From NCBI GenBank assembly GCA_049290495.1, contig JBATNV010000318.1:4709-68708 (forward strand): a DNA stretch of 64,000 nucleotides. Direction: 5' to 3'. The notes below the pieces were generated by a model, which was given only the letters and a program-made list of their open reading frames with translations, had not been told where the DNA came from and did no database searches. The stretch is from Gammaproteobacteria bacterium. Its GTDB lineage: Bacteria > Pseudomonadota > Gammaproteobacteria > Steroidobacterales > GCA-2729495. This document shows, piece by piece, positions 9,374 through 60,966 of the stretch. Numbering within the stretch: position 1 is the first letter of the stretch; each line of letters starts with the position of its first letter. Made by a program: the position numbers and the translations under genes.

Positions 9374-9709
9374 TCATCTGGCCGGGGGCGGCTCCGCGTC
9401 ATACAGTTGATGGAAATAGCGCGTCTGTCGTCGAAACACTTCACGGTCTACGGGGGCGAGGATTTCCTCGACCAGGCTGTTGACCGGCCGGCCGGCAAGC
9501 TCGGCCATGGCCGCGTCCTTCCAGGGCACGATGTACATGACCTTCGGCAGTTCCTGGTTGCCACGAATGGCCGTGGCGTCGAGGTTTAGCGCCGTAGCGG
9601 CTGGCGAAGCGACAGCAGCCGGTGCGGCTGAATCTTCGGCGCGGGCCATACCGCCGGTCAGCAGCGCACACAGCAGCAAGGCAGTTCTGCCTGGCGGTAT
9701 CGGCTTCAC
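9374..9709 (-). CDS. secreted protein, hypothetical
   Basis: 111 aa with signal peptide (..LLLCALLTGGMARA). ATGA overlap with the upstream TPR gene. Confidence 0.7.
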   Translation of the reverse strand: MKPIPPGRTALLLCALLTGGMARAEDSAAPAAVASPAATALNLDATAIRGNQELPKVMYIVPWKDAAMAELAGRPVNSLVEEILAPVDREVFRRQTRYFHQLYDAEPPPAR

Positions 9710-45695: not shown

Positions 45696-46100
45696 CTAGT
45701 CGCGATCTGCCTTCGCGACGGTGATGGTTGTGCTGTATTTCTTTGCGTCGCTGCGATTGCCAGTGAAGTGGCCGATCATCGTCATGCCCAGGGGCATGTT
45801 GCCGACCGCTGCCATCTTGATCTTGCTGGTTTCGATCAACTGGCATTCGCCCGGCTCCACGATGGTCTCCCCTTCGCTGTGGCTCACCCGGAGCGGCACC
45901 GAGCCAGGCTTGTCCTCAACACAGACCCGGTAGGCCTTGGTCTTCTGGCTGCGGATCACGGTCTGCACGTCATTGTTTTCAAGCTGGAACATACGGTAGT
46001 TTGCAAGCAGTCCGTCGTTGCTGTCTGCCTGGGCCGCCGGTAAACCCGTAAGCAGTCCGGCGCCAATCACGGCAATGAGCTTGATGCTGTTCTTGTGCAT
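45696..46100 (-). CDS. secreted protein, hypothetical
   Basis: 134 aa, signal peptide ..LLTGLPAAQA, two Cys. Confidence 0.6.
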   Translation of the reverse strand: MHKNSIKLIAVIGAGLLTGLPAAQADSNDGLLANYRMFQLENNDVQTVIRSQKTKAYRVCVEDKPGSVPLRVSHSEGETIVEPGECQLIETSKIKMAAVGNMPLGMTMIGHFTGNRSDAKKYSTTITVAKADRD

Positions 46101-46309
46101 GGCTTTAACTCCCTGAGGTTTTCTGAGCGTCTGTCACCGCCGGCCCTCCACCCCGACTTGAGCGCAGAGGTTGCGCCAGCATCACAAGGCTGTGTGTCGC
46201 GACGTGGACAAAACAGCCAAAGAGAGTCGGCGAGAGCCCATGCACAGGATCTTTTTCACGCCGAACGTCAGCGCGCCGACACACGCAGGGAGGCCGCTTG
46301 TCAGAATTA

Positions 46310-46325
46310 TGTCAAGCGGGTGACA
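46310..46325. promoter_or_regulatory. Crp/Fnr-type palindrome TGTCA-N6-TGACA
   Basis: TGTCAAGCGGGTGACA, perfect 5-6-5 inverted repeat, 75-90 nt upstream of the Crp-family gene. An extra TGTCA half-site lies at 46299-46303. Confidence 0.4.
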
Positions 46326-46399
46326 GACCAGGTGACTGGCCCGAACAACACTGCTGTACGGGCGGACGTGGGGATTCACACGACGCGAGGGCAAGGCCA

Positions 46400-47101
46400 A
46401 TGAACACGGCACGGGCAATTTTTCAGAACAACGAACTGCTGCGATATCTGGACAGCAGCGGCCTGGAGCGGGTAGCACAGGTGGCTACACGACGGAGCTA
46501 TTGCGGGAACACAACGATCTACGCACACGGCGATCCGCCCGATGCGATCTACGGCGTTATCGCCGGCCAGGTGCAGATCAGCTCAAGAACCTCGGGCCTC
46601 GATGAAGTCTTTCTGGGCAACTACAGCTCTGGCCGGATTTTTGGCCTGGTTTCTGTCATCGACGGCCTGCCTCGATGCGTAACCGCACGAGCTGCACCCA
46701 AAGCCGAAGTATTTACCATCTGTCGCGACAAGTTCCTGCGCCTGCTGGCGAGCGATTCCCTGCTGGCCCTGAGCCTGCTCAATGTGTTCTGCCGGCATGA
46801 ACGGATCGCCACCCGGATGATCACCGATGAATACGCCCTGAGAAGTGTGCCAGCGCGCCTCGCGCACCGCGTTCTGGAACTGGCCGGGCCGTACAACAGC
46901 GATCAGGGTTCTGCCGACCACGCCGTAGAGATCACCCAGGCCGGCCTCGCCAAGTACGTCTTCGTCTCACGCCAGGTCGTCAACCAGTATCTCGGCGAAT
47001 GGCAAAGCCGGGGCTGGGTATCCACCTCGCGCTGCCGCGTGATCGTGACGAATCGCAAGGCGCTGGCAACCGTCGCGACCAACGGCGGCGGGCATGCATG
47101 A
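46400..47101 (+). CDS. Crp/Fnr-family transcriptional regulator
   Basis: GAGG upstream of the ATG at 46400. cNMP-binding beta-roll (..GDPPDAIYGVIAGQVQIS..GRIFGLVSVIDG..) and C-terminal HTH (..ITQAGLAKYVFVSRQVVNQYLGEW..). Confidence 0.88.
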   Translation: MNTARAIFQNNELLRYLDSSGLERVAQVATRRSYCGNTTIYAHGDPPDAIYGVIAGQVQISSRTSGLDEVFLGNYSSGRIFGLVSVIDGLPRCVTARAAPKAEVFTICRDKFLRLLASDSLLALSLLNVFCRHERIATRMITDEYALRSVPARLAHRVLELAGPYNSDQGSADHAVEITQAGLAKYVFVSRQVVNQYLGEWQSRGWVSTSRCRVIVTNRKALATVATNGGGHA

Positions 47102-47109
47102 GCATGCCC
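47090..47109. terminator. perfect 8-bp hairpin shared by convergent genes
   Basis: GGGCATGC-atga-GCATGCCC. The loop contains the Crp stop codon, and the convergent metzincin gene stops 4 nt beyond the stem. Confidence 0.4.
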
Positions 47110-47112
47110 GAA

Positions 47113-48417
47113 TTACTGATCTCGCATCCAGCAGCTAAAACTTGCGACTCTTGCAGCCGTCTCATTCAGAGTGCGCGCATTATCTGCCCGATCTTGCCTC
47201 CCCATCGGCCGACCACAGACCCGAAGCTCCTTCGCGGTATTTGACCAGTAAAGCAGCCGTGCGTAGGCAGAACTCAGCGCATCACCGTCCATGATGGTTG
47301 TCCATGGCCCACACGGGCCTTCTGGCTCTGATTGCCGGTATGCCACGCTGTAGCCTGAGGTCTGAGGATCATCTGTGTGCCCAGCGCCCATGAGATGACC
47401 AAGTTCGTGTACAAAAGCGTAGGAACTTGTCAGCGACTGTATGGGGACAACGGCAAATGCGATCTCGGCGAAGGGCCTTATGTTTTCCAGGTTGGCACTG
47501 TTGAGCGCTTCCGCATGACCGCCACGTTCGACATTCGACGTGACAAGGATCACCAGGTCCACATCAACTTCTTTCCGCCATCGACGAATGTCTTGCGCCC
47601 ACTTCGCCTCCCCCAGCCTCAATCTGGCGAGATCCTTTTCATTATTCCCGCTTTCCTCATATGAAACCTGGCGGGCAGGGGCCACGCGAATCCGCTGCTG
47701 CACGCCACTCCCGGCAAATGATTGATTAGCAAGACGCTGTGCAACCGTCATCCATGCCGCGATCTGCGCCTCACCTTGCGCCCATTCCTTCGCCTTACCG
47801 GTATATACGGGCAGCACGTCAATCTCGACTGGCTGCGGAACGGCACAGCCGGCTTTCAGCGACATCGGGGTAGCCGAGGCTACAAACTGATTTTCATGCG
47901 TGTCGTCAACAAACTCCGCTCTGCTCACCAGCTCCACTATCGTTTTGCCTGCCAAAATCTGCCGAATGCGATAGACAGGTCCGGCCGAAGTGCTGATCAG
48001 ACCGACAACCCCGGTCGGAGTTGGCGCCAGGGTCACATTGCTGAAGCTGTCACCGTCCACTTTGCCAATCCAGACAGCCTCATCATTCGTTGAGGCTGTC
48101 TGGCGCAAATACAGGGTACGCAGGACTGGCAGGGTTCTGGTCGCGACGCGATCTCGAAGCGGAAGCGGTACCGCAAGTCTGTCCAGACCGCCTGACCGAA
48201 GGACGTCTCCATTCACCTGCAGCAGCCGACACGCATCCGTCTCCGGGGACATAGCGTCGGCAGGACAACTCACATCCAGAGCAGTCCACAGCGTTGGCGG
48301 GCCTGCCCAGCACCGAAGAACAAACAAGGCAAGCGCCGCCGTGGCCAAAACACGCACAATTTCTGACTCAGGGGATGCATTGAACGCAGGACGTTGAGCT
48401 TCTGCTGCACCCGCCAT
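47113..48417 (-). CDS. secreted zinc metalloprotease (metzincin, HExxHxxGxxH)
   Basis: ..YAFVHELGHLMGAGHTDD.. Start uncertain (ORF start 48417 overlaps the upstream gene; GTG 48357 gives signal peptide VRVLATAALALFVL). Confidence 0.8.
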   Translation of the reverse strand: MAGAAEAQRPAFNASPESEIVRVLATAALALFVLRCWAGPPTLWTALDVSCPADAMSPETDACRLLQVNGDVLRSGGLDRLAVPLPLRDRVATRTLPVLRTLYLRQTASTNDEAVWIGKVDGDSFSNVTLAPTPTGVVGLISTSAGPVYRIRQILAGKTIVELVSRAEFVDDTHENQFVASATPMSLKAGCAVPQPVEIDVLPVYTGKAKEWAQGEAQIAAWMTVAQRLANQSFAGSGVQQRIRVAPARQVSYEESGNNEKDLARLRLGEAKWAQDIRRWRKEVDVDLVILVTSNVERGGHAEALNSANLENIRPFAEIAFAVVPIQSLTSSYAFVHELGHLMGAGHTDDPQTSGYSVAYRQSEPEGPCGPWTTIMDGDALSSAYARLLYWSNTAKELRVCGRPMGRQDRADNARTLNETAARVASFSCWMRDQ

Positions 48418-48922
48418 ACATGGTGCAGACCGGTCGTCTTACGCAGGGTGGTTGATAGTCACTGCACAGTGGTGCCGATGCTTTAGCGCCCATAACCGTC
48501 ATCCGGAATGAAGTGGACTGCAAGTCCTTGTCGCTTTGGACGGCGTTGTAGGCTTCTGCAAAAACAGGCGCAATCCTGTCCCGATCCTTACCAAAGAATA
48601 CATAGGTCACCGTACCTGGTGGATTTCCGGGCGCAAGCAATACATCCTGCCCTTGCTTCTGTGCCTTGACCGGTTCGAAATCGCCGCAAAGTACACAACC
48701 GACATCCGCGAGCTGCAGATCTGCACCCTCTGGCACACCCAACAACTCCCGCAGCCGGGTCTGGAAGGCCAGCAGTCGCTGCCAACCCTCTACCCCAGCT
48801 GTCTTTTCACCACCCGCGACCTCAAAGTTGTAAAGGAGCTCGTCGGCATGAACGGCGGACGCACTAACGGCCAACATCAGTGCAAGCAGAACGGCGGAAC
48901 GCGACTTCAATATCAATGACAT
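48368..48922 (-). CDS. secreted Cys-rich protein, hypothetical
   Basis: GAGGG 8 nt upstream of the ATG at 48922. Signal peptide MSLILKSRSAVLLALMLAVSASAVHA. C-terminal ..LCSDYQPPCVRRPVCTMYGGCSRSSTSCVQC. Confidence 0.7.
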   Translation of the reverse strand: MSLILKSRSAVLLALMLAVSASAVHADELLYNFEVAGGEKTAGVEGWQRLLAFQTRLRELLGVPEGADLQLADVGCVLCGDFEPVKAQKQGQDVLLAPGNPPGTVTYVFFGKDRDRIAPVFAEAYNAVQSDKDLQSTSFRMTVMGAKASAPLCSDYQPPCVRRPVCTMYGGCSRSSTSCVQCIP

Positions 48923-48972
48923 CACCATACCCTCACGTTTGTGAACCACATGCTGGACGATCAATCAGACGG

Positions 48973-51900
48973 CTAGAACTCGATACTTATGCTCCCGGAA
49001 ACCAGACGCCGCGTCGCCACGCGGGGACTGAGCGGGTCGATCTCGATGACATCAACCTCTTCGTCAAATACATTCCGCGCACCGAAGCTGATGGAGCCAA
49101 ACCGCCTGGGCAGCCGATATTCCAGCAGCACATCCGTAATCCAGCCGTCGTCTGTCTTCGGTACAACGGGAAAAACCGAGTCGATTGCGAAGTCGCCTTC
49201 CTGCCTTACGTAACTCGTCACCAGGCGCAGCGAGAGTCCGCGCGATCCAAACAGGGACACACCAAACGGCACCCGGATCGTTTCGAGCATATTGATTCCT
49301 TCAGGCCCGTTGTGCACCTGAGGCCGGTTCAGGTGTTCGTATTCGCCAGCCACAGAGAGCGCTGTATTCAGGCCAGCGCCAAAGCCGCTGCTGCGCCCGG
49401 ACACGAAGGTCTTGTACAAATAGATCCGGGCCGACTTTTCCCGCCAGGTGGTATCCGCATCGAGAATTGCCGATGGGACCTCAAGCTTCCGCAAGGCAGC
49501 TTCGAGACCGGCAAAAGCAGACGGGGACAGGGTCTGGTCGATTGCCATCCCCACCCGCCTGGAAACCGTACCTTCAGGATCGCCATAGAACTGTTCAAGA
49601 CCGGTAAAAAACTGATTGAAGCTCGCCACTTGCGTGGGCTCCAGGGTCTGTCCACCGATGAACGGGCGCCGCAGGGATGTGAAAGCCGCAGCACGCACTG
49701 TGGTGCCATCAGTCGGCGACCAGACCATGCCAAGCTTTGGACTGAGTTGCTTTCGATCGATAGCCGGCAAGCCAAAGCTGTACCTCAGCTTGAACAGATC
49801 CAGGGCCAGACCACCGGTCAAGCTCAGATCCAGATCCGCTACCTGCCACTGGCCATAGACGTAGGCATTCGCATCGTAGGTCTCGATAGTGCCCTGTTCG
49901 AGCGGAAAGTCTTCATTGACCTTGATATAGGCCACGCCAGAGACCAGCTGGGTATTGGCAACGTGGTCGAATCGTTGCAGCTCACCGGCATAGGTATCCG
50001 CATCAGTCCGGGTAACCAGTGAACCGTCCACCGGATAGATGACATCCCTTCGACGATCCTCATAAGCGAAGGTCCATATCCAGTCCCCACCCGGACTCGT
50101 CGCATGCCGTCCGTTGAACCTGAAAGCATCAGCTTTCTCATCGATCGTGACCGGAAAAGAATTCAATTCATCGAAAGCAAAGAAAGTGTAGCCAAGCTCA
50201 AACTCGGAGTGATTGACATCAAGCTGCAGTGAGGTTGCGGGAGATACCTCAAACTGCAGGAACCCGTCATAGACATCTTTTTTCGCCGCATTGTTGTCGT
50301 TGAAGCCATCCGTTTCATAGTGCAACTGACTGACTGCAAATCCGACATTCTTCTCCAATCCACTGACGATGAATTGATCTCCGGCTGTTCCACGTGATCC
50401 AGTCATCCCATCGGCCCGGATACGCAGCTGGTTCCGGTTAAACAGGGAATTGAACTCGTTGAGACCGATCCGGCTCGGCCCCGCTCCCTGGAGGACGCCG
50501 AGATTGTCAGTACTCGTCAGCAAATTGAGCGGGGGTGTCGAGAGAGGCTGTCTGACCTGCGCCTGAAACGCTTCGCTGACGCGGGAGATATCGTACCTCG
50601 GCAACGCGGCGTATGCGTTGGCGAGGAGTCGGTGCGCCGAGGAATTGCCGAAATTCTCAGCCAGGGCCTCGGTACCCTCGCGGACTGCCAAACCCTCGAA
50701 GCCCAGCTCGTTGTAGACAGCGGAGACTCCCGCGTTTCGTGCAGCGGCATCGTCATCGAGCAGGAGCTGTGAACGGTAGACCGCGCGGTTGTCGTTCAGC
50801 GCGACAGACTCGCGCAGTTCATTCAGCGCCTCGACTGGTTGGTTGGCCACCTGCTTACTGAACGCTTCATAGAACCACGGCGTTGGATCATTGGGATCAA
50901 GCCCTTTCGCCATCTCGAACTGCGAAGCCGCAAGCTTGTCGCGCTTCTCGTCGAAGTAAGCCTTGCCCATGTAGCTCCTGACCAGCGAGTTGTTCGGATC
51001 GAGAATCACGGCAATTTCAATGTCCTTCCGCCCTGCCTCCATCTCGCCTTCACGAATTTTCGCAAGTCCCAGTCCAAGACGCGGCAGCGGTGCATTGGGC
51101 TCCAGGCGAATTGCCTCGACAAACGAGTCCTTTGCGGCACTCAGCTGGATGCGACTTAGTTCTACAAAGCCAAGCACCGAATGGGCCAGCGAGAGCTGCG
51201 GATCAGCCGCCAGTGCCGCCTTCGCTTCCGCTTCGCTGCGCCCGAATTCACCGGAGGCCAGCCAGAGCTCGGCGAGTCGTGCGCGCAGCAGCGCGTTATC
51301 GGGTTGCGCCGCTGCCCCTGCCTCGAGGTCGCTGATGGCGCCCGGCAGGTCGAAGCGCGCTTGCCGCGCATAGGACCGCGCGAGTCGGGCAGCGGCGGAA
51401 TCCGGCGCAGCGGTTACGGCCTGATCGGCAGTTTTCAGGGCGGTTTCGGTGTCATCGCGCGTGAGCGCAATCACCGACTGCCTGGCCAGCACCTCGGCAC
51501 TGCCGGGAGCGAGACTCAGCCCACGGGCGAGATCAGTCTCGGCTTCAGACACCTGGCCAACGCGGAGGCGCTGCTCAGCGCGGCCGAGGAAAAGCGCCGC
51601 CGTCTGTTGCGCAGCCGTCACTTCGGCATCGGCGGCCGGCAACGGACCCGCAGTGATCGGCGGGTAATACAGCGTCCACACCACGGCATCGCGGGGCCGC
51701 ACAATCTGCTGCAGTACCGGCGCGCTGCCGGCGCGAGCCAGTACGCTCTCGCCGGAAGCGGCCGTTGCCGCACCTGCGCTGTTCTCGACCTTCACGCTGC
51801 CCTCGTAAACGATCACGGTGGTGGCATCGCTGCTCACGCCGACGAAGAACTCCGTGCCTTCGATACCGGCATTGGCGAAAGGCGTGATGACGCGCAGCGC

Positions 51901-52284
51901 ACGCGGGTCGCGGCTGATGACGTGGATCGCGCCCTTCAGGATATCGAGCCAGGTGCGCTTGTCGTCAGTGGGTGCGGCAAAAGTGATGACGGTGCCCTGA
52001 TCGATGCGGACCACGGTCTGATCCGGCAGCTCGAGAGCTACGCGACTGAAGGCGCCAACTTCAAGCACGTCGCCTACGCAGAAGTTCTGTTGCAGACCCG
52101 GCTGTGACACGCGCGCAATACCCGCGCGGCGCAGACTGACAGTGCCCTGACTGGAGAGCAGCCGGGCGACCCAGGCCTCACATTGCTGCGTGCCGGACGG
52201 CGCAATTTGTGCGTAGAGCGGGGTGCAGAGAACGATTGCACTCACAACGAGTACAACCAGGAGCGACGAGCGGATACGTACCAT
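48973..52284 (-). CDS. FecR-domain / TPR / TonB-dependent-receptor-like beta-barrel protein (about 1100 aa)
   Basis: Signal peptide. FecR-like ..VALELPDQTVVRIDQGTVITF..GIEGTEFFV... About 8 TPRs in the middle. C-terminal half is beta-strand-rich and ends ..LVSGSISIEF. Confidence 0.85.
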   Translation of the reverse strand: MVRIRSSLLVVLVVSAIVLCTPLYAQIAPSGTQQCEAWVARLLSSQGTVSLRRAGIARVSQPGLQQNFCVGDVLEVGAFSRVALELPDQTVVRIDQGTVITFAAPTDDKRTWLDILKGAIHVISRDPRALRVITPFANAGIEGTEFFVGVSSDATTVIVYEGSVKVENSAGAATAASGESVLARAGSAPVLQQIVRPRDAVVWTLYYPPITAGPLPAADAEVTAAQQTAALFLGRAEQRLRVGQVSEAETDLARGLSLAPGSAEVLARQSVIALTRDDTETALKTADQAVTAAPDSAAARLARSYARQARFDLPGAISDLEAGAAAQPDNALLRARLAELWLASGEFGRSEAEAKAALAADPQLSLAHSVLGFVELSRIQLSAAKDSFVEAIRLEPNAPLPRLGLGLAKIREGEMEAGRKDIEIAVILDPNNSLVRSYMGKAYFDEKRDKLAASQFEMAKGLDPNDPTPWFYEAFSKQVANQPVEALNELRESVALNDNRAVYRSQLLLDDDAAARNAGVSAVYNELGFEGLAVREGTEALAENFGNSSAHRLLANAYAALPRYDISRVSEAFQAQVRQPLSTPPLNLLTSTDNLGVLQGAGPSRIGLNEFNSLFNRNQLRIRADGMTGSRGTAGDQFIVSGLEKNVGFAVSQLHYETDGFNDNNAAKKDVYDGFLQFEVSPATSLQLDVNHSEFELGYTFFAFDELNSFPVTIDEKADAFRFNGRHATSPGGDWIWTFAYEDRRRDVIYPVDGSLVTRTDADTYAGELQRFDHVANTQLVSGVAYIKVNEDFPLEQGTIETYDANAYVYGQWQVADLDLSLTGGLALDLFKLRYSFGLPAIDRKQLSPKLGMVWSPTDGTTVRAAAFTSLRRPFIGGQTLEPTQVASFNQFFTGLEQFYGDPEGTVSRRVGMAIDQTLSPSAFAGLEAALRKLEVPSAILDADTTWREKSARIYLYKTFVSGRSSGFGAGLNTALSVAGEYEHLNRPQVHNGPEGINMLETIRVPFGVSLFGSRGLSLRLVTSYVRQEGDFAIDSVFPVVPKTDDGWITDVLLEYRLPRRFGSISFGARNVFDEEVDVIEIDPLSPRVATRRLVSGSISIEF

Positions 52285-52458
52285 CACAAAGCCCCCCCCA
52301 CGGCAGGCATGAGCAAAACTGGTACGGCGCAGGCCCCACGAACGACGCCGATTTTTATTGTTTAACACCGGACCCTGTCGGGTTCCGGCGTCGTTCAGTC
52401 TATGGACTTCTGCGGCAGCGCGCAACGGAAGCAGCGATGCTTTCTTAAGCCGGTCGCC

Positions 52459-54672
52459 TCACTTTCCGGACATACGGATGGCACCGTTCTCAAAGCTGTC
52501 GGGCCCGCTCGCGAGGTAACGGGCGCAGAGTTCCACGTAGAAACACACCGGCCCGTCATCGGCTTGCTCGCGGTGCAGACTGCCGAAAACATCCGCCGCC
52601 GTCTGCCAGCGCATCGCCCTGAACGCCGCTAACGCCGCTGCAAAACGCGCGTGCCGTTCGCCGACGATTGCATCGCGATCCGCATCCAGCAGTTCGTGGA
52701 TCACCAGCGGCCTCGACTTGCCGGCCAGCAGGAAGGTGCCAACGTCACGACTCGACAGGCCCCCGGTTTCTGCGAGCGTTTCGCCCGAGACAAGAATCCG
52801 CGTGCCGAGCTGCTTGTTGAGGCCTTCGATGCGCGAGGCGGTGTTGACGATGTCGCCGACCGCGCGAAATTCCATGTGACCGGCGCCGCCGATATTGCCC
52901 AGACGGATGGGCCCGGTATGCAGCCCGATGCGCGTGGGCAGTTGCGGCCGGCCCGGCAAGGCATTGAAGCGATCCACCGCTGCAGCCACGGCCAGTGCGC
53001 CGGCGCAGGCACACTCGCGGATCCTGTGGTCGGGTTTCGACACCGCCCATATGGCCATCATGGAATCGCCGACGACGTCGGTAACGACCCCCTCGCACGC
53101 TTCGACCTCGGCGAACATCACCGCGTAGTAGGCGTTCATCAGTGCCGCCAGTTCTTCCAGCGCCAGGGTCTCGGCGAGATGCGTGTACTGCTCGGCATCA
53201 GTCGCCATGCAGGTGCCGTGCAGAAGTTCGGCATTGGGCTGCAGATCGCCGAGATTCTGCATCAACTGGTCGAGCGCCCGTTTCGGCAGATAGGTGCCCA
53301 GCGCCTGCATGACGCGCTCGCGCTGCTTGCGCGTCTGCAAGTACTGCGCGAGCAGGCCGAGCAGCAGCGCGACCGGCAGCTGCACGAACAGCGGCACGAA
53401 CAGCGGCAGCCAGATGTTCATGGCATCGAAAACCCACCAGGCCCAGGCGCCATACAGCGGCACTGCGAACAGGCTGAAGGCGATCGTTGCCGGTGGCGTC
53501 AGCACGCGGCAAAAGCCACCCACGAGCAGCCCCCAGAAACCGATCACGAACAGTTCGGCCGGAAAGGACAAGGGCTTTATCGCGGTGCCGTCCAGCATGT
53601 TGGCAATTGCAGTCGCCGCGACTTCCACGCCGCTGATGTCGAGACCGGTGTGGTCCGAGAACACGGAGTAGAAGCCGTCCTTCTGCTCAGGTTGGAACTC
53701 GTCCGAAAACCCGACCAGCACGATCTTGCCGGCCAGTTCATCGCTGTCTCCGCGCAAGGCCTGCACATAAGGTAGCGTCCGCACGGTGCGCGCCGGCCCG
53801 TAATAGTTGAGGTAGCGGGTATCGGCGCCCGCGTAGAGTTCGAGCAGCGAGCGCAGTGCAGCTGGCTGCTGCTGCAACTGTTGCCACTCGGCATCCAGGG
53901 TAGCCAGCGCTGCCCCGTCAGTCGTCAGGCAGCTGCGCGCCTGTTGCAAAAGGCTGTCGATCTGACGTGCGGCGACCACCTCGGCGGTCGTGGCATGCAG
54001 CAATTGCGCCAACTCCGGACAGACCCGGCGCAGATCGGCAAACCACTCACCAGGCTGACGCAGCATCCAAGCCTGGAAGACAGTGGTCGGAAATGTCGCG
54101 AGGTTGCCGGCACTGGCCTTGAAGGTCCAGAACTGACTGACTCGTACCGGTACGACCGGCAAGGTGAATGGCGCGACCGCCAACGCACCGGCAGCGATCG
54201 ACGGCACCGGCGGAATGAGCTTCTCGGCGGTGAGCACGATCTGTCGATCCTGGCTCGCACCCACAGCGGTCTTTTTCAGGAAGACAGCCAGCACCACGTT
54301 GCCCGCTTGGTTCAGCGCTGCGCCCAGGCGCTCATCGCCGGAAGGCTCAGCTGGATCATCAAACAACACATCGAAGCCGACTACTGCCGCGCCTTCTGCA
54401 GCCAGGTGTTCGACGAGTTCTGCATGCAGGGTACGCGGCCATTTAGCGGGTATATTCGGCAGGCCGAAAGCATCGCTCGAGAATTTGTCGAGACCGATCA
54501 CCACCACTTCGGCGGGCGCCTCGCGCGGGCCGCGCAGGAGGAACAGGGTGCCGAGGCCGAAGTCTTCTTCGACTCGCAGCACTGCGGGTACGGCACCGGC
54601 GAGCATCCCAAACAGCGTTGCCAGCAGGCCAAACAGGGCAAACTGCGGCGCCCTGAGGATCATCGCGTCCAC
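52459..54672 (-). CDS. CHASE2-sensor class III adenylate/guanylate cyclase
   Basis: N-terminal CHASE2 (..VVVIGLDKFS..WPR..), TM cluster, cyclase domain (..CMATDAEQYTHLAE..VGDSMMAIW..RIGLHTG..VGDIVNTASRIEG..). Confidence 0.9.
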   Translation of the reverse strand: MDAMILRAPQFALFGLLATLFGMLAGAVPAVLRVEEDFGLGTLFLLRGPREAPAEVVVIGLDKFSSDAFGLPNIPAKWPRTLHAELVEHLAAEGAAVVGFDVLFDDPAEPSGDERLGAALNQAGNVVLAVFLKKTAVGASQDRQIVLTAEKLIPPVPSIAAGALAVAPFTLPVVPVRVSQFWTFKASAGNLATFPTTVFQAWMLRQPGEWFADLRRVCPELAQLLHATTAEVVAARQIDSLLQQARSCLTTDGAALATLDAEWQQLQQQPAALRSLLELYAGADTRYLNYYGPARTVRTLPYVQALRGDSDELAGKIVLVGFSDEFQPEQKDGFYSVFSDHTGLDISGVEVAATAIANMLDGTAIKPLSFPAELFVIGFWGLLVGGFCRVLTPPATIAFSLFAVPLYGAWAWWVFDAMNIWLPLFVPLFVQLPVALLLGLLAQYLQTRKQRERVMQALGTYLPKRALDQLMQNLGDLQPNAELLHGTCMATDAEQYTHLAETLALEELAALMNAYYAVMFAEVEACEGVVTDVVGDSMMAIWAVSKPDHRIRECACAGALAVAAAVDRFNALPGRPQLPTRIGLHTGPIRLGNIGGAGHMEFRAVGDIVNTASRIEGLNKQLGTRILVSGETLAETGGLSSRDVGTFLLAGKSRPLVIHELLDADRDAIVGERHARFAAALAAFRAMRWQTAADVFGSLHREQADDGPVCFYVELCARYLASGPDSFENGAIRMSGK

Positions 54673-54681
54673 CGCCTGGCT

Positions 54682-55371
54682 TCAGTCGCGCTCATCGCGG
54701 ACGCGACGCAGGCTGTCTGGATCGCGGATCACCACCCGGCCGCGGGCCAGGTCGATCCATCCCCGCTTGCGCCACTGTTGCAAGTGCTGATTGACGATCT
54801 GGCGCGAGACACTCATGAAGCCGGCCAAGTCCGCCTGCGAGATCTGCAGCACCATGAGGCCATCGACCGTGCTGCCGTGTTCCTCTGCCAGCTTCATCAG
54901 CCGTCGCGCCAGCCGCGCCGGAACAGACAGGAACGCTGCCTCCTCGATCAGATCGCTGGTCCAGCGCAGGCGCTTGCACAGTAGTTGCAGGAGGTGCGTG
55001 GCGAGGCAGGGCTCTTTCTCGATCAGGGCCAGAAAGTCAGCGCGGCGAATGACGAAAAGTTCCGTGTCGCTCAGTGCATCGGCCGTGGCGGTGCGCGGAT
55101 GGCCGTCGAGTGCAGCGATCTCGCCAAAGCTGTCGCCGGACTCGAGGATATTGAGGAACACCTCCTGTCCGCCGGGTGTGCTGGCGCTGATCCGCACCTG
55201 CCCGGAGATCAGGCCCAGCAGCGCATCACCGGGCTCACCCTGGGCAAAGATGCGGCTGCCGCGGCCGTATGAACGGCGGATCGCGAGCGCGGCCAGCTTG
55301 TCGATGGCCGACTCCGGCAGACTGCCGAGGAGCAGATTGGCTTTCAACACGCTGCGAGCGGTCAGGGTCAT
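54682..55371 (-). CDS. Crp/Fnr-family cNMP-binding transcriptional regulator
   Basis: ..GEPGDALLGLISGQVRIS..GDSFGEIAALDG.. and HTH ..ISQADLAGFMSVSRQIVNQHLQQW.. Lies 9 nt upstream of the cyclase gene. Confidence 0.9.
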   Translation of the reverse strand: MTLTARSVLKANLLLGSLPESAIDKLAALAIRRSYGRGSRIFAQGEPGDALLGLISGQVRISASTPGGQEVFLNILESGDSFGEIAALDGHPRTATADALSDTELFVIRRADFLALIEKEPCLATHLLQLLCKRLRWTSDLIEEAAFLSVPARLARRLMKLAEEHGSTVDGLMVLQISQADLAGFMSVSRQIVNQHLQQWRKRGWIDLARGRVVIRDPDSLRRVRDERD

Positions 55372-55401: not shown

Positions 55402-55417
55402 TGTCAAGTGCCGGACA
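55402..55417. promoter_or_regulatory. Crp/Fnr-type near-palindrome TGTCA-N6-GGACA
   Basis: TGTCAAGTGCCGGACA, 31-46 nt upstream of the Crp gene start at 55371. Shares TGTCAAG with the site at 46310. Confidence 0.35.
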
Positions 55418-55815: not shown

Positions 55816-55905
55816 CGACCATGCGCCCGGCACCCGGACCGGACCCCCAGCATGGACATCAGCAATCAGCACAATCTGCTCGTACCCCTCCTGCCGGAGA
55901 GCGCA

Positions 55906-56100
55906 ATGAAGTTCGGCGTCCGCGTCGGTCTGCCCGCTGCTGACCCCTTGAGCGACGTGCTCGGTGCAGACTGGCAGCGCGAGCACTGGTTTGCGACCGC
56001 TGCTGCGCGCGATGCAGCCTTGCGCGAAATGGCACGGCGTCATCCTTTCAGCCGGATTGGCGACACGCCGAGCATCCGCCTGGAAGCTATCCAGCGTTAA
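55906..56100 (+). CDS. small protein (64 aa), hypothetical
   Basis: GC3-rich codons. Ends 12 nt before the TonB-dependent receptor start. Confidence 0.3.
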   Translation: MKFGVRVGLPAADPLSDVLGADWQREHWFATAAARDAALREMARRHPFSRIGDTPSIRLEAIQR

Positions 56101-56112
56101 CCCGACGCGACG

Positions 56113-58167
56113 GTGATTCGTCTGCGACAAGGACTGGCCAGCGGCCTCGCAGCGTTTTTCATCGCTGCTACGGCAACTGCCGCTGACCGCACCCTACCCG
56201 AAGAAATCGTCGTCACCGCCACCCGCTATCCGGTGGCAGCACTCGATCTGGCCGGTAACACCGCCCGCCTTGATACAGAGCGCATTGAACTGCTGAATGC
56301 CAGTCATATCCATGAAATCACGGCAGAGATTCCCGGCACCTGGATCACGCGCGGCAGCGGCCAGGAAAGCATCACTGCAATCCGCTCACCGGCCCTAACG
56401 GGACCAGGTTCCTGCGGCAGCTTCCTGTTTCTGGAAGACGGCGTCGCCATCCGGCCGACCGGCTTCTGCAATGTGAACGAAACCTTCGAGATGGTGTCGG
56501 AACTCGCCAGCGCCATCGAGGTGATCCGCGGGCCGGCTTCAGCGCTGTATGGCTCGAATGCCCTGCACGGCACGCTGAACGTACTGTTGCCCGAGCCGGG
56601 GCCGGACACGCTTTATGTCAGCGGCGAGGCTGGACCGGACAGTTTCATGCGCGGCAAGCTGATCTGGGGCAACGGTACCGGGAGCGGCGATGGCCTGATC
56701 GGCGGCCTGGTCTACGATCACAGCGATGACTTTCGCGACTCGGCCGGTTACAGCCAGGCCAAGGGTTTTCTGAAGTACGGGACTGATCTGCGCGGCGGTC
56801 AGCTCGAACTTGCTTTCAGCGGCACCCTGCTTGATCAGGACACGGCCGGATTCATATACGGCGAGAACGCCTACCGGGACGAATCGCGACGCCACACCAA
56901 CAGCAACCCGGATGCCTATCGCCGGGCAAACAGCCAGCGTTTCAACGCCAGCTGGCAGCCGGATGGCAACCGGGCCGATGACGGCTGGAAACTGATCGGC
57001 TTCCTGCGCCGTTCCGAAATGGATTTCCTGCAACATTTTCTGCCCGGCCAACCGGTGGAAAAAAACGGACAGTGGAGCGGCGGCGCCACCCTGCTGCGCT
57101 ATACGACACTCGGTCCGGCACGGATCACTGCCGGCTTCGATACCGAAATCGCCGACGGCTACCTGAAAGAAACCCAGGAAAGCGCGGACACCGGCAACCG
57201 GCCGCAGGGCCGGCACTACGATTACGATGTCTGGCAGTATCTCGCCTCGCCTTATGCACAGGCTGAGCTGCCGCTGAATGCACGGTGGGCGCTGACCGGC
57301 GGCCTGCGCTTTGAATGGCTGCGCTATGACTACGACAACCGGATGCTGGATGGAAATACGCGCGAGGATGGCACTGCATGTACACCGCCCTGCCTTTACA
57401 GCCGCCCGGCTGACAGCAGCGAGAACTATACAAATCTGGCACCGAATCTTGGCCTGCTGTTCCGGCTGGATGCGGAAAATTCGGCCTACCTCACGCTGAC
57501 GCGCGGTTTTCGCGCACCGCAGGCAGCGGAACTCTATCGCCTGCAGGCCGGACAGAATGTCGCTGACCTCCATTCCGAAACCATCGACAGCCTCGAACTT
57601 GGCTGGCATCACCAGTCAGCGCATCTGGATCTGTCCGTTGCAACATTTGCCATGCACAAGGACCACTACATCCTGCAGGACTCCAACCGCTATAACGTCA
57701 GTGATGGCGAAAGCCGGCATGTCGGCGCTGAACTCGACGCCGAAGCGCGGCGCGACAACGGACTCTATGCCGGAATTGCCGCGACCTGGATAAAACAGAC
57801 CTACGCCTTCAGTCAGCAGATCGCCGGCGGTGAAACCATCACCTCGGGCAATGACATCGATACAGCACCGCGCACGCTGGGCAGCCTGCATATCGGCTGG
57901 TCAGTCAACCCGTGGCTGGCGGAAATCGAATGGATACACCAGGGCAGCTATTACCTGACCGCGCAGGAAAACCAGCGCTACGGCGGTCACGATCTCTTCA
58001 ACCTGCGCGCCGCCTGGTCGGTCAACCGGGAATGGCGCGTCACGGCGCGCATCAACAATCTCAACGACACCCTCTACGCCGATCGCGCCGACTACGCCTT
58101 CGGCGAATATCGCTACTTCCCCGGCCACGACCGGGAGCTGTTTCTTGAACTCAGCTACCAGCGCTGA
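56113..58167 (+). CDS. TonB-dependent receptor
   Basis: Signal peptide; TonB box-like ..EEIVVTATR..; plug (..IEVIRGPASALYGSNALHGTLNV..); long barrel. Confidence 0.9.
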   Translation: MIRLRQGLASGLAAFFIAATATAADRTLPEEIVVTATRYPVAALDLAGNTARLDTERIELLNASHIHEITAEIPGTWITRGSGQESITAIRSPALTGPGSCGSFLFLEDGVAIRPTGFCNVNETFEMVSELASAIEVIRGPASALYGSNALHGTLNVLLPEPGPDTLYVSGEAGPDSFMRGKLIWGNGTGSGDGLIGGLVYDHSDDFRDSAGYSQAKGFLKYGTDLRGGQLELAFSGTLLDQDTAGFIYGENAYRDESRRHTNSNPDAYRRANSQRFNASWQPDGNRADDGWKLIGFLRRSEMDFLQHFLPGQPVEKNGQWSGGATLLRYTTLGPARITAGFDTEIADGYLKETQESADTGNRPQGRHYDYDVWQYLASPYAQAELPLNARWALTGGLRFEWLRYDYDNRMLDGNTREDGTACTPPCLYSRPADSSENYTNLAPNLGLLFRLDAENSAYLTLTRGFRAPQAAELYRLQAGQNVADLHSETIDSLELGWHHQSAHLDLSVATFAMHKDHYILQDSNRYNVSDGESRHVGAELDAEARRDNGLYAGIAATWIKQTYAFSQQIAGGETITSGNDIDTAPRTLGSLHIGWSVNPWLAEIEWIHQGSYYLTAQENQRYGGHDLFNLRAAWSVNREWRVTARINNLNDTLYADRADYAFGEYRYFPGHDRELFLELSYQR

Positions 58168-58228
58168 AGGTACTCAAGGATCTGAATCTGCACGCAGCTT
58201 GTACTCGCACTGCGTATAAAGCCGGCGT

Positions 58229-60319
58229 TCAGGCCCAGCCTGACCAGTCACCGCGGTTCTCAACGACGTGAAACAGCGCCGCGATGACGCGGCGGTCGAA
58301 CTGCGTACCGGCACCGCGCAAGAGTTCTGCCAGCGCATCGTCCATCGACATGCCCTGCCGGTACGCACGCGCACTGACCAGCGCAACGAAGGCGTTGGCG
58401 ACTGAAAGTATCCGCCCGGACAGGCTCATCTGTTCTTCAGTCAGGCCGCGCGGATAGCCGCTGCCGTCCAGACGTTCCTGCTTCTGCGCAATCACATCCA
58501 GCACCGGGCCATCAAAATCCAGGCCCTTGAGAAGCTCCAGGCTGTAGGCGACATGCTTTTGCAGCAGCTCGCGGTCGGCTGATGTGAGCGGCTCTGTCTT
58601 CAACAGCAAATCGCCGGGCAGCATGATCTTGCCGATGTTGGCCAAGGTCGCCGCCAGGCCCAGCGTCGCCTGCTCGTCCGCCGGCAGCTCAAGTTCGCGC
58701 GCCACAGCCTGCGCCACCTCGGCCATGCGGTTTGCGTGATGCGCCGAGTATGGATCGTGGAGGTCTACGGCATCTGAAAGCGCGCCGACCAGGCTGCGCA
58801 GCATGTCGGCGTGATGCTGCTCGGCCAGACGCAGGTCGGTGACATCGTTCAACACCAAGAGGACCAGTTGTCTTCGCTCGCCGATCCGCTCGACAGGTAT
58901 GAAGCTGGCCTGGTAACTGCCCAGCGTGGAATCGATCTGCAACTGCATCACGCGCTGTACCGGGACACGCTGCCGGCGCGCTTCGTCGCTGAGCGCAGCG
59001 ATCTCGGCCGCCATATTTGTGCCGAATATCGCGCTGATCCGGCTGCCGACCATGCCGGCTATCGTGTTCTTTACCGCGTTCGCCGTGGCCTGGTTGGTAA
59101 ACACCACTTCCTGATCGCGGTTCATGAGCACGGTCAGCACATCGATATTGTCGGTAATCGTATGCAGGAGATCGGTCTGTTTCTGCAGCTTGGCTGCCTT
59201 GCTGCGCAGTTCTTCCGCCTGATGCCGCGCGCGCACGCTGCTGCCGTGGCGCCACGCCGCTACTGCAAGCGTCGCGATACTGAACAGCAGCAGGGACAGC
59301 GTCGCGAGCAGGAAGCGCCGGCGCTCATCGGCTGTGCTCAAGGCATCCTTCGCGTTGACGCCCTGTATCAGCACCCACGGCTCGCCGGCGGATACCAGAC
59401 CACGGATCCGCCGGCTGACCTGCAACATCGGTACACCGCGATAGTTGTCGAGGCTCACGAATTCGCCCGGCGACAGCACAGCGGCAACTTCAGCAAGATC
59501 GGAGCGCTCGATCGGCAGGCTGCGGCGCAAAGGCGCACCGCCGTCCGGTGTCGGCGAGAGAAAGACGATGGTGTCGTCGTGGCGCGCCACCAGCAGGGTT
59601 TCACTGTCTTCGGCAAAGGCCGGCCCGCGACTGAGCAGCGGATAGAGCTCCTGCTCGGCACTGCGCACACCGATCAGCACGCCATTGGGTGGGCCGCCAC
59701 CGGTCAGGGAGCCGGACACCGCAGCCACCGATACCGCGATCACCACGACGGCGCGGTCCTGGGGATCGAGCCGCAGATCGACCAGCGTCGTGCCCGGACT
59801 CGCGAGTGCGTGGCGCATCACGTCACCATAGCTGTCTGCAAGCTCGCCGAGACCCGGCGTGACCACCACCGGCCGAAGTTCGGCATCGAGCAGCGCCAGA
59901 CCGTAGCTGAGCGAACGCGGCAGGTTGGCCGGCACACGGGTTGCGGGATCGGGCATATAGCCGCCGCGCTCAGCCGCTGCGAGCATCAGGTTGCGCAGAT
60001 AGGCCTGCTGTGCCGACTCGACCTGTACGCCATCCGGCGTCTGCTGCTGGCGCGCACGCACCAGCTGCCACAGGTAGAGCTGCAGCGATGCATTGTTGGC
60101 CAGTTCGCGGAGATCGCGCTGATCGGCAGCCAGCGACCGGGCCAGCGCATCGGCCTTGCTGTCGGCCACCAGGCCGAGGCGTGTCTCCCATTGCAGGAGA
60201 TCGCGCTGTCGTTCGTTCTCTATATATATGTTGATCAGCAGTCCGCCGATACCGATCAGCACCACCAGGGCGAGAATAGCGGCCATCACAGACCGCCGGA
60301 TATTCAGCTGCTCGGTCAT
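58229..60319 (-). CDS. membrane sensor with periplasmic domain, PAS and degenerate HD-GYP domain
   Basis: Two TM segments flank a periplasmic region of about 310 aa. PAS-like segment. HD-GYP-like ..HDPYSAHHANRM..LANIGK..KQERLDGSGYPRGL..ANAFVAL.. ATGA overlap with the upstream BTLCP gene. Confidence 0.85.
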   Translation of the reverse strand: MTEQLNIRRSVMAAILALVVLIGIGGLLINIYIENERQRDLLQWETRLGLVADSKADALARSLAADQRDLRELANNASLQLYLWQLVRARQQQTPDGVQVESAQQAYLRNLMLAAAERGGYMPDPATRVPANLPRSLSYGLALLDAELRPVVVTPGLGELADSYGDVMRHALASPGTTLVDLRLDPQDRAVVVIAVSVAAVSGSLTGGGPPNGVLIGVRSAEQELYPLLSRGPAFAEDSETLLVARHDDTIVFLSPTPDGGAPLRRSLPIERSDLAEVAAVLSPGEFVSLDNYRGVPMLQVSRRIRGLVSAGEPWVLIQGVNAKDALSTADERRRFLLATLSLLLFSIATLAVAAWRHGSSVRARHQAEELRSKAAKLQKQTDLLHTITDNIDVLTVLMNRDQEVVFTNQATANAVKNTIAGMVGSRISAIFGTNMAAEIAALSDEARRQRVPVQRVMQLQIDSTLGSYQASFIPVERIGERRQLVLLVLNDVTDLRLAEQHHADMLRSLVGALSDAVDLHDPYSAHHANRMAEVAQAVARELELPADEQATLGLAATLANIGKIMLPGDLLLKTEPLTSADRELLQKHVAYSLELLKGLDFDGPVLDVIAQKQERLDGSGYPRGLTEEQMSLSGRILSVANAFVALVSARAYRQGMSMDDALAELLRGAGTQFDRRVIAALFHVVENRGDWSGWA

Positions 60320-60966
60320 GGCGCGCGCGGAACGTGAATCCACCAATGGGCTTCATTGATGGAAAATACCGGTGCGTAGTGGACGACATCACGCTGCGAC
60401 AGTACCGCCTGTACCTGGTTGTCGAGAATAAAAACGTCCATGCCGCGCGCGACTGCCAGCACCGCATGCGGGACGCGCAGATTGGTGTCCTGCACGATCA
60501 CCAGGCGCAGGTCGTCGTCCGCAAGGCCAAGCCAGCGCAGCGAGAAAAACTTGGTGATGGCGTAGTCCTCACAGTCGCCGCCGTTGCTCAAAAACTCTCT
60601 GGGAATGGCCCAGTAATCCTCAACGCCGTAGTTCTGCAGATCGAGCACGTAATTGCGGCTGTTGGCGTAGAGGTTTACGGCCTTCAATTGCTCGCGTACC
60701 GGCAGCGTGCGGGTCTGGTCGATAAAGCGCCGCCACTCCGCCATATGACAACGATTGATCATCCGCGCGCTGCAGTCACCGTCCTGCAGATTATCGGTCA
60801 GCTGTCTTTCGAGGACCCGCAGCCATTGGGGAAAGTCGGCCAGCCGCTGCTGCGGCTCCTCGGCATAGCCGAACAGGTCCGCAGGAAAGGCCTGGGCTAC
60901 ATTCTGGCCAGCACCGTACAGACCGATCGCAAGCGTCAGTAGAGTTGCTTTAACAGAAGCCGACAT
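60316..60966 (-). CDS. transglutaminase-like cysteine peptidase (BTLCP / peptidase C93, LapG-like)
   Basis: Signal peptide; ..NGGDCEDYAITKFFSLRWLG.. (Cys), ..PHAVLAV.. (His), ..FILDN.. (Asp). Confidence 0.85.
   Translation of the reverse strand: MSASVKATLLTLAIGLYGAGQNVAQAFPADLFGYAEEPQQRLADFPQWLRVLERQLTDNLQDGDCSARMINRCHMAEWRRFIDQTRTLPVREQLKAVNLYANSRNYVLDLQNYGVEDYWAIPREFLSNGGDCEDYAITKFFSLRWLGLADDDLRLVIVQDTNLRVPHAVLAVARGMDVFILDNQVQAVLSQRDVVHYAPVFSINEAHWWIHVPRAP

Follow-up and report, generated by a model that had tools for sequence, protein, structure and literature searches.

The gene cluster described here lies in a 64,000-nucleotide stretch of gammaproteobacterial DNA (the window, by which we mean the whole stretch analysed). 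An initial annotation had recognised in it five minus-strand genes, encoding a Crp-family regulator (Crp1), a CHASE2-domain class III nucleotidyl cyclase, a very large protein that combines a FecR domain, tetratricopeptide repeats (TPRs) and an outer-membrane (OM) β-barrel (here called the giant), a small Cys-rich secreted protein (SM184) and a secreted metzincin protease, with the gene of a second Crp paralogue (Crp2) converging on them. All six genes were found where that annotation had placed them, and the family assignment of their products by Pfam and NCBIfam scans gave Pfam matches for each of the domains it had proposed, namely CHASE2, Guanylate_cyc, FecR, TPR, the TonB_dep_Rec barrel and Reprolysin_5 (Table 1). 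The related loci with which the window was compared are numbered L001, L002 and so on, L001 being the window's own public contig.

Table 1. Genes and other features of the locus, in window coordinates.
Feature	Position	Strand	Details
Crp1 gene	54682-55371	-	229 aa; Pfam cNMP_binding 1.4e-24, HTH_Crp_2 7e-16
CHASE2 cyclase gene	52459-54672	-	737 aa from GTG; CHASE2 5e-29, Guanylate_cyc 4e-11
Giant gene	48973-52284	-	1103 aa; FecR 2e-17, TPRs, TonB_dep_Rec_b-barrel 8e-9; C-terminus ...SISIEF
SM184 gene	48368-48922	-	184 aa, from ATG with good Shine-Dalgarno sequence
Metzincin gene	47113-48417	-	Reprolysin_5 3e-12; motif HELGHLMGAGH
Crp2 gene	46400-47101	+	Convergent; Pfam-supported Crp paralogue; left boundary of the cassette
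Low-GC input cassette	47105-50731		3' half of the giant gene, coding for the last TPRs, neck and barrel; SM184 gene and metzincin gene
Crp operator-like palindrome	55402-55417		TGTCCGGCACTTGACA (gene strand); type TGTCA-N6-TGACA, lying 46-31 nt before the crp1 ATG
TGTC-N8-GACA boxes	46195-46210, 46310-46325		Divergent region between crp2 and the gene of a 134-aa secreted protein
Giant promoter-like element	52397-52425	-	-35 TTGCGC 52420-52425, 17-nt spacer, -10 TAGACT 52397-52402, ~105-nt leader

The crp1 and cyclase genes are separated by 9 nt, as first described, if the cyclase starts at its GTG, but by 18 nt if it starts at the ATG at 54663 that the gene caller preferred (734 rather than 737 aa), and a gap of 174 nt follows before the giant gene. 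The open reading frame (ORF) of the giant spans 48973-52425 on the minus strand; its true start is M48 at nt 52284, which gives a product identical to the database protein P0001. The ATG of the SM184 gene at 48922, backed by its Shine-Dalgarno spacing and by P0121, leaves 50 nt between that gene and the giant gene, so that, although the last three genes are closely packed, the 8 nt reported initially would require an unlikely TTG start. The stop codons of the crp2 and metzincin genes are 11 nt apart, which confirms the convergence of the second Crp paralogue on the cluster. A lack of synteny in other genomes, named at the outset as a reason to abandon the module, was not what we observed: the same five-gene order was found again with giants 81% and 67% identical to that of the window, the latter in a different genomic context, and this recurrence is not chance.

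The giant is an NsrA-like outer-membrane protein

The description of the giant as an exported protein of roughly 1100 residues, joining FecR, TPRs and a plug-less barrel, was borne out both by Pfam and by an AlphaFold2 (AF2) model built from the family alignment (pLDDT 86.7, pTM 0.86). A signal peptide (residues 1-26) precedes a FecR β-sandwich (residues 40-193; nt 51706-52167), a TPR solenoid (residues 229-578; nt 50551-51600) and a neck (residues 561-618), and the C-terminal half is a 22-stranded barrel resembling those of the TonB-dependent transporters, without a Plug domain (residues 619-1103; nt 48973-50430), the 22 strands being modelled at 619-1102. The number of repeats, given earlier as about eight, has to be raised, as the TPR region of the model contains ~24 TPR-like helices (~11-12 pairs). 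Foldseek matched the barrel to the TonB-dependent transporters PqqU, FrpB, FpvA, BtuB and FecA (E ~1e-14), and the helical part to the TPRs of OGT.

The barrel is related to those of the TonB-dependent transporters, whose fold and 22 strands it shares, but the giant is not itself a member of that group, because the Plug domain is missing: Pfam gave no match to PF07715 in the giant, the N-terminus of which is taken up by the FecR and TPR domains. Since neither a plug nor a TonB box was found, TonB dependence is unlikely. We also rejected membership of the Fec-type signalling systems, there being no sigma70_r2/r4 or anti-sigma gene in this locus or in the related loci. The giant does have the complete architecture of NsrA, with a signal peptide, a FecR domain, TPRs and a C-terminal barrel of ~500-600 aa on one polypeptide of ~1100-1200 aa, and the tethering of FecR to an OM barrel, which had been singled out as a special feature of this locus, is therefore already found in NsrA.

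In Sinorhizobium meliloti, the OM β-barrel protein NsrA is needed for the CHASE2 cyclases CyaK, CyaD1 and CyaD2 to answer a protein signal, uL2, and the Crp-family protein Clr is the reader of the cascade, switching on its regulon (PMC13001267, PMC7529298, PMC10463352). The signal of FecR/CHASE2 systems, described as unknown in the initial annotation, is thus known in this case. Published descriptions place the NsrA barrel at about residues 600-1200. The cyaD1 locus holds clr (SMc02175), cyaD1 (SMc02176), a FecR-domain gene (SMc02177), smc02178 and a phosphodiesterase gene; smc02178 is a Clr target, the product of which is periplasmic and of unknown function. CyaK is SMb20776, on pSymB, and nsrA is, we assume, the gene that adjoins cyaK.

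A tblastn search of plasmids with the giant returned no S. meliloti pSymB record, the only matches being to a Phyllobacterium TPR protein and to a 2-Mb chromid of S. sojae, on which a 1217-aa FecR and TPR ORF directly abuts the gene of a 661-aa CHASE2 cyclase. This is the arrangement expected for nsrA-cyaK, given that CyaK is encoded on pSymB. By BLASTP, the window giant and the S. sojae ORF are 25% identical over 514 residues (E 2e-20), with an additional barrel segment, and hhalign aligned a profile of 115 members of the giant family to the same ORF over 982 columns, covering FecR, TPR and barrel (probability 99.95%, E 6e-38). On this profile evidence, the window giant and the Sinorhizobium NsrA-like protein are homologous over their full length.

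The likeness extends beyond the giant. Both systems have an OM protein with N-terminal FecR, TPRs and a C-terminal barrel of ~500-600 aa, a CHASE2 cyclase of class III in the inner membrane, whose gene lies beside that of the OM protein (as judged from S. sojae), and a Clr-type reader, here Crp1, with a palindromic TGT-N10-ACA operator, and the cyaD1-clr locus also encodes a small periplasmic protein (SMc02178) and a FecR-domain protein (SMc02177). Identity is, however, only ~24-25%, the giant gene precedes the cyclase gene in Sinorhizobium but follows it in the window, and the S. sojae CyaK-like cyclase keeps the adenylate-type Lys (a K/S pair), where the window cyclase has D/R. The S. meliloti components are, in addition, spread over several loci, whereas those of the window stand at one, and we did not find a swappable barrel cassette, a co-varying small Cys-rich protein or a protease described for Sinorhizobium in the literature searched.

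The giant is conserved together with a CHASE2 cyclase

The family of the giant is large, with more than 1298 full-length homologues in the protein database and relatives in the genomes of at least 544 species, distributed over the Gammaproteobacteria, Desulfobacterota, Nitrospirota, Rokubacteria/Methylomirabilota, Chloroflexota and other phyla. Linkage was counted at 60 loci, free of redundancy, where 2.5 kb or more was available on either side of the giant gene: a CHASE2 gene was present in the flank at 56 of these (54 with a cyclase domain), and at 47 it lay immediately upstream on the same strand. When neighbouring ORFs were clustered without prior selection, most clusters were high-GC shadow ORFs, and the cyclase and Crp-like genes were the only real genes to recur widely. 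Among the 134 nearest neighbours, Pfam identified cNMP_binding (20), HTH_Crp_2 (16), GAF (9), sigma-54 activators (6), MBL-fold hydrolases (4) and class II cAMP phosphodiesterases (3), with proteases rare. Linkage and neighbours together therefore define a conserved core of giant and CHASE2 cyclase, around which cyclic-nucleotide genes are common and the readers vary. Proteases were rejected as general neighbours of the pair, because it is readers of cyclic nucleotide monophosphates (cNMPs) and phosphodiesterases that recur beside it outside the gammaproteobacterial clade. A more distant locus, L009 (6593-15319), has another gene order and a second protease class beside the receptor, its genes encoding an Apyc1-like/MBL-fold hydrolase (a possible cNMP phosphodiesterase), the giant, a Peptidase_S8 protein and a CHASE2 cyclase.

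Related partnerships have been described elsewhere. A survey of Campylobacterota found CHASE2 cyclases clustered with a FecR-domain OM protein, a TPR protein and a cAMP phosphodiesterase, from which its authors inferred a single pathway spread by horizontal transfer (PMC9239204); there, the FecR-domain OM protein and the TPR protein were reported as separate proteins, which are fused in the window giant, and no Crp, protease or small Cys-rich gene was reported, whereas the window has all three. The 'BiofilmReg' operon of Burkholderia encodes a response regulator, a LysM-FecR protein, a CHASE2 histidine kinase and a DUF4136 protein (PMC5192318). Its output is a histidine kinase, FecR is carried on LysM instead of an OM barrel and no cyclic nucleotide is involved, but, like the window, it has a secreted FecR-domain protein encoded beside a CHASE2 sensor, which supports a general FecR-CHASE2 partnership.

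The cyclase has intact catalytic residues and a non-canonical substrate-specifying pair

The cyclase consists of a first transmembrane (TM) helix, a periplasmic CHASE2 domain (PF05226, 5e-29 over residues 27-384), three TM helices and a cytoplasmic cyclase domain, with hydrophobic segments at ~9-31 and ~375-450. Alignment to Pseudomonas aeruginosa CyaB (3r5g) and to OaPAC (5x4t) agreed with the earlier view that its catalytic residues are intact: the two metal-binding Asp residues, the phosphate-binding Arg, the Asn and the transition-state Arg are all present, and none of them varies among the 69 cyclases that are paired with homologues of the giant. Judged by these residues, it has what a competent class III nucleotidyl cyclase requires.

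The residues that specify the substrate are a different matter. Adenylate cyclases have a K/D pair, and guanylate cyclases a Glu combined with C/S/T/H/A/G (PMC4215837); Cya2, a CHASE2-regulated guanylate cyclase of Synechocystis with an E/G pair, is converted to an adenylate cyclase by E488K alone (PMC5995499). The window cyclase has Asp at the Lys position and Arg at the Asp/Thr position. It was expected at the outset that these residues would distinguish cAMP from cGMP as the product, and the comparison could be made, but the pair fits neither rule: adenylate-type specificity (Lys with Asp in class IIIa or with Thr/Ser in class IIIb) is missing, and so is guanylate-type specificity, the Asp being acidic but shorter than Glu and the second residue being Arg. 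We found no characterised cyclase with an Asp/Arg pair in the literature searched. Among the 69 paired cyclases, the first position is occupied by D41/N18/E6/G3/K1 and the second by R52/T5/S4/G4/A2/Q1/D1, so that most of the family lacks the ATP-specifying Lys and has a conserved pair of Asp or Asn with Arg. Cya2 remains similar in its CHASE2-TM-class III architecture and in having an acidic residue (Glu) at the Lys position, but differs in its second residue, Gly.

Because the substrate-specifying residues are non-canonical, cAMP cannot be assumed to be the product. Some mycobacterial adenylate cyclases (Rv1900c/Rv0386) also do without the Lys, and cAMP may therefore still be the product; as a rough split, we would put cAMP at 45%, cGMP at 35% and a dual or other specificity at 20%. 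The consequence may be wide, since hundreds of genes annotated as adenylate cyclases may make another product or use a new mode of substrate recognition. Four of the giant-linked cyclases (L059, L069, L072 and L073) have the Glu/Gly pair of Cya2 and are predicted guanylate cyclases, and that of L080 is the only paired cyclase with Lys/Asp.

Two Crp paralogues and two probable transcription units

Crp1 has its best PDB matches in Mycobacterium tuberculosis CRP (5e-33) and S. meliloti Clr (7pza; 7.7e-33, 117 bits), compared with ~61 bits for Escherichia coli CRP and Vfr. Its nucleotide pocket, FGE...RT...TS, is conserved in its orthologues and is followed by a C-terminal helix-turn-helix, as in regulators of the Crp/Clr type. 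Clr makes its contacts through G85/E86, R95/S96 and T140/T141 and takes both nucleotides, and, on this residue comparison, the Crp1 pocket, which is standard and comparable to that of Clr, does not discriminate between the two. Comparison of Crp2 with its orthologues (L002:15232-15930, L006:11763-12464 and L007:11678-12376) showed a degenerate pocket, with FG[L/I/M] for FGE, RC for RT and AT/AI for the TS of the C-helix, and a VSRQxVNQ recognition helix nearly identical to that of Crp1. It is therefore probable that Crp2 competes with Crp1 for the same boxes, free of canonical nucleotide control.

The palindrome upstream of crp1 is one of only seven TGT-N10-ACA sites in the 64 kb. It is kept at about -46 in the window, L002, L004, L006, L007, L008 and L013, although the surrounding sequence has diverged, and in L011 it stands at -31, counted from the ORF start adopted there, making eight loci in all. 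The two boxes on the crp2 side are kept at -90 and about -133 in L002, L006 and L007. Divergent from crp2, at 45696-46100 on the minus strand, lies a gene whose conserved 134-aa product has a signal peptide but matches no family; it is a candidate member of the regulon because the intergenic region (46101-46399) holds these two conserved Crp-type boxes.

The initial annotation took the five minus-strand genes for a single operon ending in a proteolytic output under Crp control, with SM184 as a possible pro-domain or inhibitor of the protease. The genes are indeed co-oriented and tightly spaced, and no convincing internal terminator was found, a scan of the locus for consensus promoters and terminators having given nothing above chance. 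Cross-locus alignment, which alone brought it to light, nevertheless revealed a promoter-like element upstream of the giant gene, conserved in the window, L002, L004, L006, L007, L008, L010, L012, L013 and L015. In L011, ~1.1 kb with two opposite-strand ORFs (8747-9900) lies between the cyclase stop codon and this promoter, which stays with the giant gene. Because of this conserved promoter and the insertion that splits the units, the locus is best read as two co-oriented transcription units, probably crp-cyclase and giant-SM184-metzincin. Of these units, moreover, only that of crp1 has a conserved box upstream; no Crp box with two or fewer mismatches was found in the cyclase-giant gap, before the unit that includes the protease. 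The leader of the giant gene (52285-52390, minus strand) contains an invariant CGTGGGG, which recurs in similar form at the ribosome-binding site, and a block rich in A. A riboswitch in the ~105-nt leader was considered and rejected, there being no Rfam match and no support from covariation or compensatory changes.

The barrel and the small protein gene are exchanged as a cassette

In order to compare the parts of the locus separately, identity matrices were calculated domain by domain for 16 loci. FecR identity follows the genomic background, and the neck and barrel fall into groups that match the downstream gene. Group A barrels (seven loci) are followed by genes for SM184 and/or the metzincin, group B barrels (four loci) by the gene of SM100, an unrelated secreted protein with four Cys residues, and group C barrels (two loci) by that of SM98, a third family, with or without an S8 protease. 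Barrel type and downstream gene type agree at 13 of 13 loci (7/7, 4/4 and 2/2), and barrels of different groups are 27-44% identical.

The mosaic is clearest at L006, L007 and L013, whose flanking genes encode proteins 74-96% identical to those of the window. Crp1 (83-91%), the cyclase (78-92%) and FecR (85-86%) are in line with this, but the barrels are only 28-31% identical. Compared with one another, L013 and L007 have FecR domains that are 98% identical and barrels that are 40% identical, whereas L013 and L006 have FecR domains 84% and barrels 100% identical. Homology of the window DNA to L006 and L013 ends at 50732 and resumes at 47104, and that to L007 ends at 50851. The segment between (47105-50731) has a GC content of 56.8% (compared with 61.8 +/- 1.5), and no other 3.6-kb stretch of the window is as low; its GC content at third codon positions is 58-65%, compared with 71-81% in the neighbouring genes. 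The equivalent segments of L013 and L006 are 98.5-100% identical on a background of 78-90%, and such near-identity on a diverged background indicates a recent exchange of the cassette.

Mosaic identities, breakpoints and low GC together lead us to regard the barrel half of the giant, the small protein and, where present, the protease as a recombining input cassette. By the same identities, Crp1, the cyclase and the FecR arm are the stable, vertically inherited transduction part. As the protease is inherited together with the barrel in this cassette, and not with Crp or the cyclase, it is tied to the sensor side of the system, and the proposal of a proteolytic output under Crp is not supported. 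The exchange of barrel and small protein as a unit separates specificity (barrel and small protein) from coupling (FecR/TPR to CHASE2), and L006, L007 and L013 are, relative to the window, natural chimeras that lend themselves to direct tests.

SM184 and the metzincin

SM184 carries a Sec signal peptide; its core, of the ferredoxin-like α/β type, spans residues 28-150, and its tail is rich in Cys (CTMYGGCSRSSTSCVQC). The C-terminus had been described as containing seven Cys residues; the family alignment shows eight invariant ones in the protein, namely a CxxC pair and six in the last 32 residues, and in the tail an invariant motif, CT(M/L/F)Y(G/A/S/N)GCS(R/K)S...SC..C. In the AF2 model the core is moderately confident (pLDDT 70-93) and the tail disordered. 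Neither Pfam nor NCBIfam gave a match, and an assignment of function from the fold was rejected, because the structural matches were generic ferredoxin-like ones (E >= 0.01, TM ~0.3), none of them significant. An exhaustive profile search of 1.84 billion proteins yielded 24 representatives of the family, all of them standalone. A distant match, P0153 (469 aa), contains seven repeats that match the SM184 profile only at 122-176, overlapping the Cys-rich tail, which suggests that the tail can exist as an independent repeat module. The public gene call on L001 (9929-10312) omits the SM184 gene and has a 127-aa antisense ORF in its place.

The identification of the last gene product as a secreted metalloprotease was well founded. 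Its Reprolysin_5 match is above the Pfam cut-off, and the zinc-motif residues H337, E338, H341, G344 and H347 (HExGHxxGxxH) and the Met-turn M376 that characterise metzincins are invariant in the family alignment. It has a conserved N-terminal region of its own of ~150 aa, and an alternative GTG start at 48357 would give it a canonical signal peptide. The enzyme has a weak likeness to adamalysin/M72-type enzymes and a weak match to the catalytic domain of ADAMTS-5. The NCBIfam model of Mep72 (NF052434) matched at 1.9e-18 over model positions 2-232 of 573, but we do not regard the enzyme as Mep72, since its 66.4 bits are far below the cut-off of 645 and the carbohydrate-binding modules are missing.

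Mep72 is nevertheless relevant to the single-operon reading, in which the metzincin would be the Crp-controlled output and SM184 its pro-domain or inhibitor. In P. aeruginosa, bamI and mep72 (PA2782-PA2783) are co-transcribed and regulated by Vfr(cAMP), and BamI binds and neutralises Mep72 (PMC4334185, PMC4222646). Here, too, a small gene lies directly upstream of that of a secreted metzincin with a link to a Crp-family regulator, Mep72 is the best NCBIfam model for the protease, and SM184 and the metzincin occur together at five of the six SM184 loci. The likeness is, however, one of gene position: BamI is reported to be largely unfolded, where SM184 has a folded core, and SM184 tracks the barrel and not the protease. 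SM184 occurs without the metzincin in L012, and the metzincin without SM184 in L011, where a putative lipoprotein of 193 aa stands before it; small proteins of other families are found in the SM184 slot at loci devoid of a protease; and a search for SM184-protease fusions, which would have pointed to a pro-domain, found none among the 24 representatives. With the protease's own N-terminal region, these observations weaken the case for SM184 as pro-domain or inhibitor, and, taken with the independent giant promoter, the L011 insertion, the position of the Crp box and the inheritance of the protease with the barrel, they make a single five-gene operon with a proteolytic output improbable.

A proposed modular trans-envelope relay

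The initial annotation had proposed a relay across the envelope, from an OM event through FecR/TPR to CHASE2, and thence by a cNMP to Crp. As a scheme this is sound, although it is not novel, being the published NsrA model, and its proteolytic end was not supported. It seems to us most likely, with a probability of about 0.6, that the locus encodes an NsrA-type relay of this kind in which ligand specificity resides in the barrel and a matched small secreted protein. The system would then have two parts, a vertically inherited transduction part (Crp1, the cyclase and the FecR/TPR arm) and an exchangeable input part (barrel, SM184 and metzincin). An extracellular cue, probably macromolecular or peptidic, would be recognised at the barrel together with the cognate small protein, SM184 serving as a hemophore-like co-receptor or barrel partner and the metzincin acting on the cue or on that partner. 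A conformational change would travel from the barrel along the TPR/FecR arm and reach CHASE2 in the periplasm, and the cyclase would make a 3',5'-cNMP, the base of which is not predictable from the Asp/Arg pair. Crp1 would bind this cNMP, as well as the TGTCA-N6-TGACA box that precedes its own operon, in autoregulation, while Crp2, with its shared recognition helix and degenerate pocket, would probably compete at the same boxes.

A role for SM184 at the barrel has a precedent in the Has system, in which signalling requires that the small secreted hemophore HasA be docked on its cognate receptor HasR, at whose locus it is encoded (PMC9249621). SM184 is unrelated to HasA. The Fec and Has systems resemble the window in that a 22-stranded OM barrel is the sensor and a periplasmic domain of the FecR fold the transducer, and in that proteolysis, in the periplasm, is part of their signalling. 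They differ in that FecR is fused to an inner-membrane anti-sigma factor, and here to the barrel, and in that the window system lacks the Plug, the N-terminal signalling domain and the ECF sigma factor, the output being a nucleotide cyclase.

Several points weigh against the modular relay. Homology to NsrA was tested on the S. sojae protein as a proxy, which is taken for an NsrA orthologue on account of its genus, size, architecture and position beside a CyaK-like cyclase, and we infer contact between FecR and CHASE2 from co-occurrence alone. The Asp/Arg pair could impair cyclase activity or alter it unpredictably. No Crp box was found before the giant-SM184-metzincin unit, the genes of which may thus not be under cNMP control. 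The protease is missing from many related loci (L006, L007, L012 and L013), and is thus dispensable for the core pathway, and SM184, which may be periplasmic or at the surface, has no informative fold match.

The composition of the cassette also admits a different account, in which the locus is a private self-signalling loop resembling the pherotype systems: SM184 would be a pre-signal, matured by the metzincin or S8 protease (by release of the Cys-rich tail, for example), and the matched barrel its receptor, giving quorum or kin sensing through a cNMP and Crp. The polymorphic unit does comprise the sensor part of a receptor, a small secreted protein and a protease, beside a conserved transducer and regulator, which is the layout of the ComQXP and Agr pherotype loci. 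Three unrelated families of small secreted Cys-containing proteins, each with an invariant C-terminal motif, occupy one slot, as do two non-homologous protease classes (metzincin and S8), the cassette has recently been exchanged between diverged genomes, and the NsrA signal in S. meliloti is itself proteinaceous. We think this account unlikely, however, because many cassettes are free of protease (L006, L007, L012, L013, L040 and L081), because a folded core of ~120 aa would be unusual in a pre-peptide, and because no Crp box stands upstream of the cassette genes to close an auto-induction loop; that SM184 crosses the OM or is cleaved is, in addition, a prediction only. If it were correct, the locus would represent protein-based kin or quorum sensing in a Gram-negative organism, gated at the OM and read out by a cNMP and Crp, the cyclic nucleotide made by the CHASE2 cyclase being non-canonical or other than cAMP.

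The polymorphism of barrel and small protein might, alternatively, reflect pressure from phages, bacteriocins or predators, the small protein being a structural partner, such as a plug supplied in trans to the lumen, and the protease a secreted hitch-hiker that takes no part in signalling. Surface barrels are common receptors for phages and colicins, a 22-stranded barrel without a plug needs to be occluded, the mature small proteins are plug-sized or smaller, and the protease is dispensable at many loci. SM100 and SM98 (~70-100 mature residues) are, on the other hand, small for plugs, and the giant's own neck and a long loop (872-906) could fill the lumen. Among ~14 gammaproteobacterial loci, the metzincin occurs in five and an S8 subtilase in the same position in two, and the presence of one or the other in 7 of the ~14 argues against pure hitch-hiking. 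We doubt this explanation to much the same degree as the self-signalling one.

The modular relay bears on a long-standing gap, namely what CHASE2 domains and their FecR partners sense, for which genetics is available only in Sinorhizobium, where the logic of ligand recognition is unclear. The exchangeable cassette, the non-canonical cyclase pair throughout the family and the arrangement of two Crp proteins are new with respect to the literature searched.

Flanking genes

Beyond crp1, positions 55852-60346 hold an 82-aa ORF, the gene of a TonB-dependent receptor with a Plug domain (56113-58167) and that of a PAS/HD_5 protein (58229-60346), the latter of the HD-GYP type (...GSGYP...). These genes are missing from the context of L004 and L008 and are kept beside the module in L002, L006 and L007, which share the genomic context of the window.

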